Part shown: positions 50,229-50,319 of the stretch, piece after piece
Numbering within the stretch: position 1 is the stretch's first letter
How the letters are laid out: every line of letters begins with the position of its first letter
Assembly: GCF_004010195.1 (NCBI RefSeq)
Contig: NC_057753.1
Location: 8,972,806 to 9,029,823 of the forward strand
Length of the DNA: 57,018 nt
Reading direction: 5' to 3'
Source: Chiloscyllium plagiosum
Lineage: Eukaryota
The notes under the pieces: generated by a model
What the model saw: only the letters and a program-made list of their open reading frames with translations
Databases searched by the model: none
Told to the model about the DNA's origin: nothing
Position numbers and translations under genes: made by a program

Positions 50229-50319
50229 GAGTTCGCCTTGGATTGGAACCCAGGAACTCTCACACGTCTGCATTCGCTGGAAGACCCAAAGCTAGAATCA
50301 TATCCCAGACTAACGAGCC
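50229..50319 (-). tRNA. tRNA-Pro(TGG) pseudogene with 20-nt intron at 37/38 (50265-50284)
   Basis: GGCTCGTTAGTCTGGGATATGATTCTAGCTTTGGG [TCTTCCAGCGAATGCAGACG] TGTGAGAGTTCCTGGGTTCCAATCCAAGGCGAACTC. Confidence 0.8.

Follow-up and report, generated by a model that had tools for sequence, protein, structure and literature searches.

The genome of the shark Chiloscyllium plagiosum holds, along with a few intronless tRNA-Pro genes, a larger intron-bearing Pro family that covers all three anticodons and carries mostly 18-nt introns. By its sequence characters, namely its site between positions 37 and 38, its short length and its ability to form the anticodon–intron (A-I) pair, the insert in these genes can be classed as a canonical TSEN-type intron. 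In our opinion, it is most probably a true intron of the source genes, with the five copies in the studied stretch of 57,018 nucleotides (hereinafter, the window) drifting as passengers. The A-I pair itself, formed by position 32 and the third-from-last intron base (-3), is textbook knowledge, and TSEN and RTCB genes are assumed to be present here, as for a vertebrate-type genome.

Direct and inverted duplications make up the window. An insert between positions 37 and 38 was found in all five of its tRNA-Pro copies, which, together with their inserts, are as follows:

50229..50319, minus strand, decayed tRNA-Pro(TGG) with a 20-nt intron, 13 differences from the intronless gene
50265..50284, minus strand, 20-nt intron of the 50229 copy at 37/38, A(-3) 50267 opposite T32 50290, four of four helix pairs
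44376..44465, minus strand, tRNA-Pro(CGG), the best-kept window copy, 3 differences, every stem paired
44412-44429, minus strand, 18-nt intron of the 44376 copy, T32 44435, G(-3) 44414
16339..16420, minus strand, tRNA-Pro(CGG) copy, T32 16390, G(-3) 16377, positions 46 and 48 lost
16375-16384, minus strand, 10-nt insert of the 16339 copy, identical to the final 10 nt of the common CGG-lineage intron
18498..18587, plus strand, tRNA-Pro(CGG) copy, positions 14 and 18 lost, T stem 2/5
18534-18551, plus strand, 18-nt intron of the 18498 copy, of the AGG-associated ending type, T32 18528, A(-3) 18549
20433..20524, plus strand, tRNA-Pro(TGG), the most decayed window copy, 17 differences, five conserved positions lost
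20469-20488, plus strand, 20-nt intron of the 20433 copy, T32 20463, A(-3) 20486

Each of these copies shows 3–17 differences from the genome's intronless Pro gene and has lost 2–5 conserved positions, and none combines the intact cloverleaf, the A and B boxes and the conserved positions that mark a functional tRNA-Pro gene. Default ARAGORN and Rfam detected none of the five, and a search at E<=5 gave no match to the Rfam tRNA model for any of them. A deletion has made the D-loop of the 50229 copy 1 nt shorter; conserved positions 14, 19 and 46 are lost there, and a T4 run is absent within 60 nt. In the 44376 copy, G46 and the B-box base T55 are lost, and a T4 run within 60 nt is likewise missing; at a lowered threshold, this copy is called by ARAGORN as Pro with i(37,18), an i(37,18) call being given also for the 18498 copy and for one of two genes on contig C23 (see below). 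The folding of isolated arms, uncalibrated on known introns, gave a 32:-3 pairing probability of 0.63 for the 44376 copy and 0.08 for the 50229 copy and supports the 3′-site fold in one of the five window copies. One pair is broken in the anticodon stem of the 16339 copy, and its insert may be a shortened derivative of the CGG-lineage intron, formed by an 8-nt deletion. All five are thus decayed sequences that duplications have carried along, and on their own they add nothing functional.

Other features of the window were also recorded. In the duplicated unit, broken C2H2 zinc-finger and reverse-transcriptase fragments lie at 14899-15372 (minus strand), 24348-24830 (plus), 6177-6641 (minus) and 45467-45961 (minus), as found in a scan covering four of the six frames. 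Decayed intronless tRNA copies of this unit at 2852-2926 (plus), 21259-21331 (minus) and 48406-48478 (plus), for which ARAGORN gives ???, Arg and Gly, respectively, resemble what we take to be Trp(CCA) derivatives; Trp(cca) is called in sister clusters. At 13450-13571 (minus), there is an Rfam MIR837 match of 63 bits (threshold of 117) that overlaps repeat family D13 and is probably no microRNA. Two assembly gaps (N runs) occupy approximately 40850-41370 and 43220-43720.

The sequence-only reading of this DNA had proposed that an A-I signature is retained in all five copies. Direct reading bears out T32 in each of them, as well as a purine at -3, namely G, A, A, G and A at 16377, 18549, 20486, 44414 and 50267; the positions 16339, 18498, 20433, 44376 and 50229, earlier given for these purines, are actually gene starts. 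The span 50265-50290, to which the signature was assigned, extends on the minus strand from intron position -1 through position 32 of the 50229 copy. As had been noticed, both TGG inserts end in GCAGACG and allow T:A, T:G, T:A and G:C pairs. The intron of the 18498 copy does end in CCGACT, with CCGA complementary to TCGG, but this complementarity is not A-I pairing: A(-3) falls on T33, and the pairing, lying one register off, excludes the 32:-3 pair. The CGG anticodon of this copy is probably a later change, since its sister copies bear AAG and CAG anticodons and a C34:C(-5) mismatch appears in the A-I register.

The view that the five copies represent about three intron lineages also stands: the 16339 and 44376 copies belong to a 28-kb direct duplication, and the 20433 and 50229 copies to an inverted one. 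The pattern of T32 and purine in the five copies alone is nevertheless weak evidence because T32 is inherited, the three lineages are related, and a pyrimidine occupies -3 in 12 of 164 insert-bearing copies among the matches listed. T32 is also present in 19 of 19 intronless rows. Three independent lineages would all show a purine at -3 by chance with a probability of about 0.07 (at a purine share of 0.41), and the actual lineages are homologous.

The genome searched has a size of 3.56 Gb. A search with the exact 5′ exon gave 41 places, eight of them intronless, and a junction search gave 10 intronless places, seven of them perfect; intact intronless Pro genes exist for all three anticodons. 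Pooled loci and the window together comprise at least 183 distinct copies, of which 164 carry an insert and 19 are intronless, in a set that is biased to good exons, has identical copies collapsed and lacks an anchor match for the window copy at 20433. Among the matches listed, the insert is 18 nt long in 149 of the 164 insert-bearing copies, whose anticodons are TGG (66), CGG (44), AGG (37) and others (17). The claim that -3 is always a purine, when extended to the whole genome, fails in the 12 pyrimidine copies mentioned above and holds in 152 of the 164 listed, and the 32:-3 pair is intact in 147 of them. Exons of the best copies show 0–2 differences from the genome's intronless Pro genes. 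Seven of 160 listed intron-bearing copies (four TGG and three AGG, none of them in the window) have kept every stem and every conserved position along with the A-I pair; among the listed copies, another seven miss only G46 and eight miss only G18.

Several groups within this set deserve separate mention. A46 is found in most CGG (37/44) and TGG (47/66) listed copies, and G18 was lost lineage-wide in AGG cluster copies (L242-L246 and others). An old intron lineage with AGG and TGG anticodons is represented by dispersed decayed copies only (L195, L214, L217, L248, L269, L270, L273, L276, L279, L283 and L286), and an intact source gene for it was not found among the matches listed. A dispersed repeat with a 5′-truncated intronless Pro-derived head, a shared tail and often GGG at the anticodon (L121, L150, L160, L164, L166, L167, L169, L170 and L171) is a probable tRNA-Pro-derived SINE.

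The constraint on individual intron columns was estimated in 18 intron clusters, which were weighted equally and are related to one another. The three highest values among 18 columns belong to -3 (purine, 0.94), -4 (purine, 0.91) and -6 (pyrimidine, 0.88), which are the partners of U32, U33 and G35, and no such constraint is seen in the bulge, at -1 (0.54) and -2 (0.67). Pairing in the 32–35 helix amounts to 0.84 in register versus 0.33–0.54 in five slid registers, and 5000 shuffles gave 0.46 ± 0.06 with a maximum of 0.68. On neighbour-joining trees of 35 copies, built with the tested column removed, purine/pyrimidine changes numbered 2.2 at -6, 2.5 at -4 and 2.7 at -3 versus 8.4 at -5, 6.8 at -2 and 8.5 at -1. 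The -3 column is not unique, since column -16 (0.88 class-constrained, 2.4 changes on the trees) is as class-stable. The copy-level frequency of a purine at -3 (141/149) was rejected as evidence, as seven other columns are 90–97% of one class, and the shifted register 33:-3 was rejected as a family pattern, its pairing being 0.53 versus 0.84.

Entropy is highest in column -5, which faces the variable base 34, and no other column shares as much mutual information with that base (0.49, reached in 7 of 1000 permutations over 24 groups); this P value of 0.007 becomes about 0.13 if corrected for 18 columns. Among the matches listed, counted by copy, T34 occurs with A(-5) in 56 of 64 cases and C34 with G(-5) in 34 of 47, and A34 is accompanied by T(-5) in just six of 38 and by C(-5) in 18; inosine at 34 could pair with C(-5) in AGG genes. 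The covariation between anticodon and intron 3′ end, earlier suggested as a check, is therefore seen at 34:-5, with few independent lineages behind the signal, perhaps two or three events. As the clusters are related, the column pattern as a whole testifies to a constraint that acted on the source genes in the course of time, and the changes at 34:-5 that may be counted as independent are few. In isolated-arm folding, a test uncalibrated on known introns, the 32:-3 pair was favoured for TGG genes and one C23 gene (0.79–0.94) and reached only 0.00–0.02 for CGG and AGG cluster genes and the other C23 gene; the 3′-site fold was supported in three of seven genomic genes folded.

The fate of the amplified copies was followed by a search with the downstream flank, which avoids exon bias and gave 55 places, 54 of them recovered. 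Many of these 54 copies have no T arm or no 5′ exon, perfect exons were found in two, and none was intronless by eye. Non-CpG divergence in 35 usable rows was 0.043 for exons, 0.075 for introns and 0.053 for the flank (exon versus flank, P = 0.12). An apparent exon conservation in cluster copies (0.041 versus 0.076, P = 2e-7, 37 of 54 rows, the other 17 having been dropped as rows with a missing 5′ exon, another trailer or too short a length) came from two broken-flank rows and was rejected, since P is 0.12 without them. The exon and flank values of the 35 rows, which are related recent TGG copies, correspond to 84/1950 and 166/3132, and -3 was changed in six of 36 rows of recent cluster copies. 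Two dead sub-lineages were still amplified (L107, L292, L294, L322 and L325; L304, L310-L313, L316, L317, L321, L323 and L327), one without the T arm and the other with the 5′ exon replaced and the intron end kept. The amplified copies are, judging by these divergences, mostly passengers.

Among the matches listed, 36 of 183 copies, 32 of them intron-bearing, run directly into the head of a SINE, presumably HE1-like. The cluster upstream motif is present in two of these 36 versus 84 of the 147 other listed copies, and in 25 complete SINE-fused copies similarity of the leader is lost some 4 nt upstream. On the basis of the SINE-head junction and this fading of upstream sharing, Pol III precursors may be regarded as the templates from which the fused copies were retroposed. 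Six fused copies were tested for target-site duplications, and none had a convincing one; 7-nt matches at chance level were seen in two.

One fused copy, L120 (C2), has an exact exon junction and no intron, but its leader, its trailer and its A46 are those typical of the intron lineages. Over 15 diagnostic sites, taken from the leader, the trailer and base 46, it shows one difference from the nearest intron-bearing copies and seven or more from each of the 17 other intronless rows scored. It is a single case among the 33 fused copies that belong to the intron lineages. L120 fits a copy of a spliced, untrimmed intermediate, and such an order would agree with human data on splicing before end processing. 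It could instead derive from an intronless relative absent from the assembly, against which none of the 54 flank-found copies proved intronless. Taken alone, A46 does not mark spliced copies, as L165 shows.

Two stand-alone Pro-AGG genes, situated 3 kb apart on contig C23 outside the duplicated unit, have fully paired stems, no lost conserved positions and T-runs 3 nt downstream. Between them, 13 of 18 intron sites differ versus one of 71 exon sites (P = 8e-11), and no alignment is obtained for the sequences downstream of the two genes. Both introns are still 18 nt long with A at -3, and in one of the genes the 32–35 helix is fully Watson–Crick. The conservation of the acceptor and anticodon stems in this pair suggests selection on the mature tRNA, which would require splicing; alternatively, the exons could have stayed alike through gene conversion by intronless genes. 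In the plus-strand gene (L288), the last six intron bases are complementary to positions 30–35 and the last two equal 39–40, so the 3-nt bulge could migrate, and the lowest-energy fold carries the helix over the splice site.

The most probable scheme is that RNA polymerase III would transcribe the source genes from about 4–5 nt upstream, and TSEN would be positioned by the tRNA body. Bases 32–35 would pair with intron bases -3 to -6, leaving a 3-nt bulge (-2, -1 and 38) for the 3′ cut, and the exons would be ligated before the ends are trimmed. Selection would have acted on the source genes, and most copies, the five window copies included, presumably arose through segmental duplication or retroposition and are now drifting; because they drift, the purine at -3 in the window copies would be inherited and not maintained. 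Of the earlier conclusion that these are or were genuine spliceable introns, the past tense is supported, by the genome-wide data and not by the five copies, and the present tense is not, as the window copies have lost 2–5 conserved positions.

A different history, in which a loop insertion once killed an ancestral Pro gene and a never-spliced pseudogene or retroposon family then expanded, with the pairing as an accident of one founder, seems unlikely to us. It would accord with the intact intronless genes that cover all three anticodons (seven perfect junctions), the near-neutral drift of recent cluster copies, the continued amplification of copies without a T arm or 5′ exon, the retention of the intron in 32 of 33 fused retrocopies and the lineage-wide loss of G18 or G46. 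It leaves unexplained, however, the conserved exons of the C23 pair beside saturated introns, the constraint on -3, -4 and -6 with free -1 and -2, the change of -5 together with base 34 and the exact loss of the intron in L120. Still less probable, and in our estimation very doubtful, is the idea that transcription and splicing continue in the window copies, especially in 44376, and that -3 is presently selected in them. The intact stems of 44376, its T32:G(-3) pair and its ARAGORN call speak for this, and the losses of conserved positions in each of the five copies, the absence of T55 and of a T4 run in 44376, the failure of all five against the Rfam model and the lack of protection of -3 in recent copies speak against it. 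A true TSEN-type intron of the source genes carried along by drifting copies is the reading that we retain.

A canonical intron in tRNA-Pro also exists in fungi, with the same isotype in a different kingdom. Canonical tRNA introns are generally 15–30 nt long, according to the portion of PMC10485636 used here. In human cells, as the consulted section of PMC8479045 states, TSEN requires the A-I pair for the 3′ cut, and base identity is not strict; the account in 10.1101/2022.04.28.489951 places splicing before end trimming. The passages of PMC12168002 and PMC10275265 drawn on here report four spliced tRNAs in 28 human genes and, for 576 genomes, name Tyr, Ile, Leu, Arg and Met as the intron-rich types. 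The introns of human and mouse Tyr-GUA, Ile-UAU, Leu-CAA and Arg-UCU, as described in the same passages (PMC10275265; PMC12168002), are, like those considered here, short, located at N37/N38 and provided with a pyrimidine at 32 opposite a purine at -3, and Arg-UCU and Leu-CAA have intron-bearing and intronless genes mixed, as in shark Pro. Unlike these four, the shark family involves Pro, three anticodons, at least 164 mostly decayed copies and a fixed length of 18 nt over very divergent introns.

The best register here, in which 32–35 form four pairs with -3 to -6 next to a bulge of 3 nt at the 3′ site, resembles the archaeal bulge-helix-bulge as outlined in part of PMC10275265, whereas the Pro introns show no consistent second helix or 5′ bulge, contain many G:U pairs and belong to a vertebrate-type host. 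The chimeric U6/L1 and tRNA/L1 retrocopies, in the excerpted text of 10.1101/2025.02.02.635956, likewise have a small RNA at the 5′ end of a retroposon and variable junctions; that excerpt deals mostly with antisense tRNA halves, and in the shark, full precursors with leader, intron and trailer are joined in sense orientation to a SINE. A literature search gave nothing on introns in the tRNA-Pro genes of sharks or any other vertebrates; tRNA databases such as GtRNAdb may hold such calls.

Summarizing the data, it may be concluded that the shark genome likely splices a fifth tRNA class beyond the four reported in humans. We consider it fairly probable that this class is living, comprising Pro with three anticodons and 18-nt introns that would change in step with the wobble base and so preserve the TSEN helix, and that the genome also fossilised an unspliced precursor and a spliced untrimmed intermediate, thereby recording the germ-line processing order. 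PMC4090602 describes the gain of tRNA introns and their spread between anticodons as open. The Pro family is a case for timing the gain or loss of tRNA introns in vertebrates, and with its intron-bearing and intronless genes, its dated retrocopies, which number in the dozens, and the variation that occurs naturally at -3 to -6, it provides a ready series of TSEN substrates.
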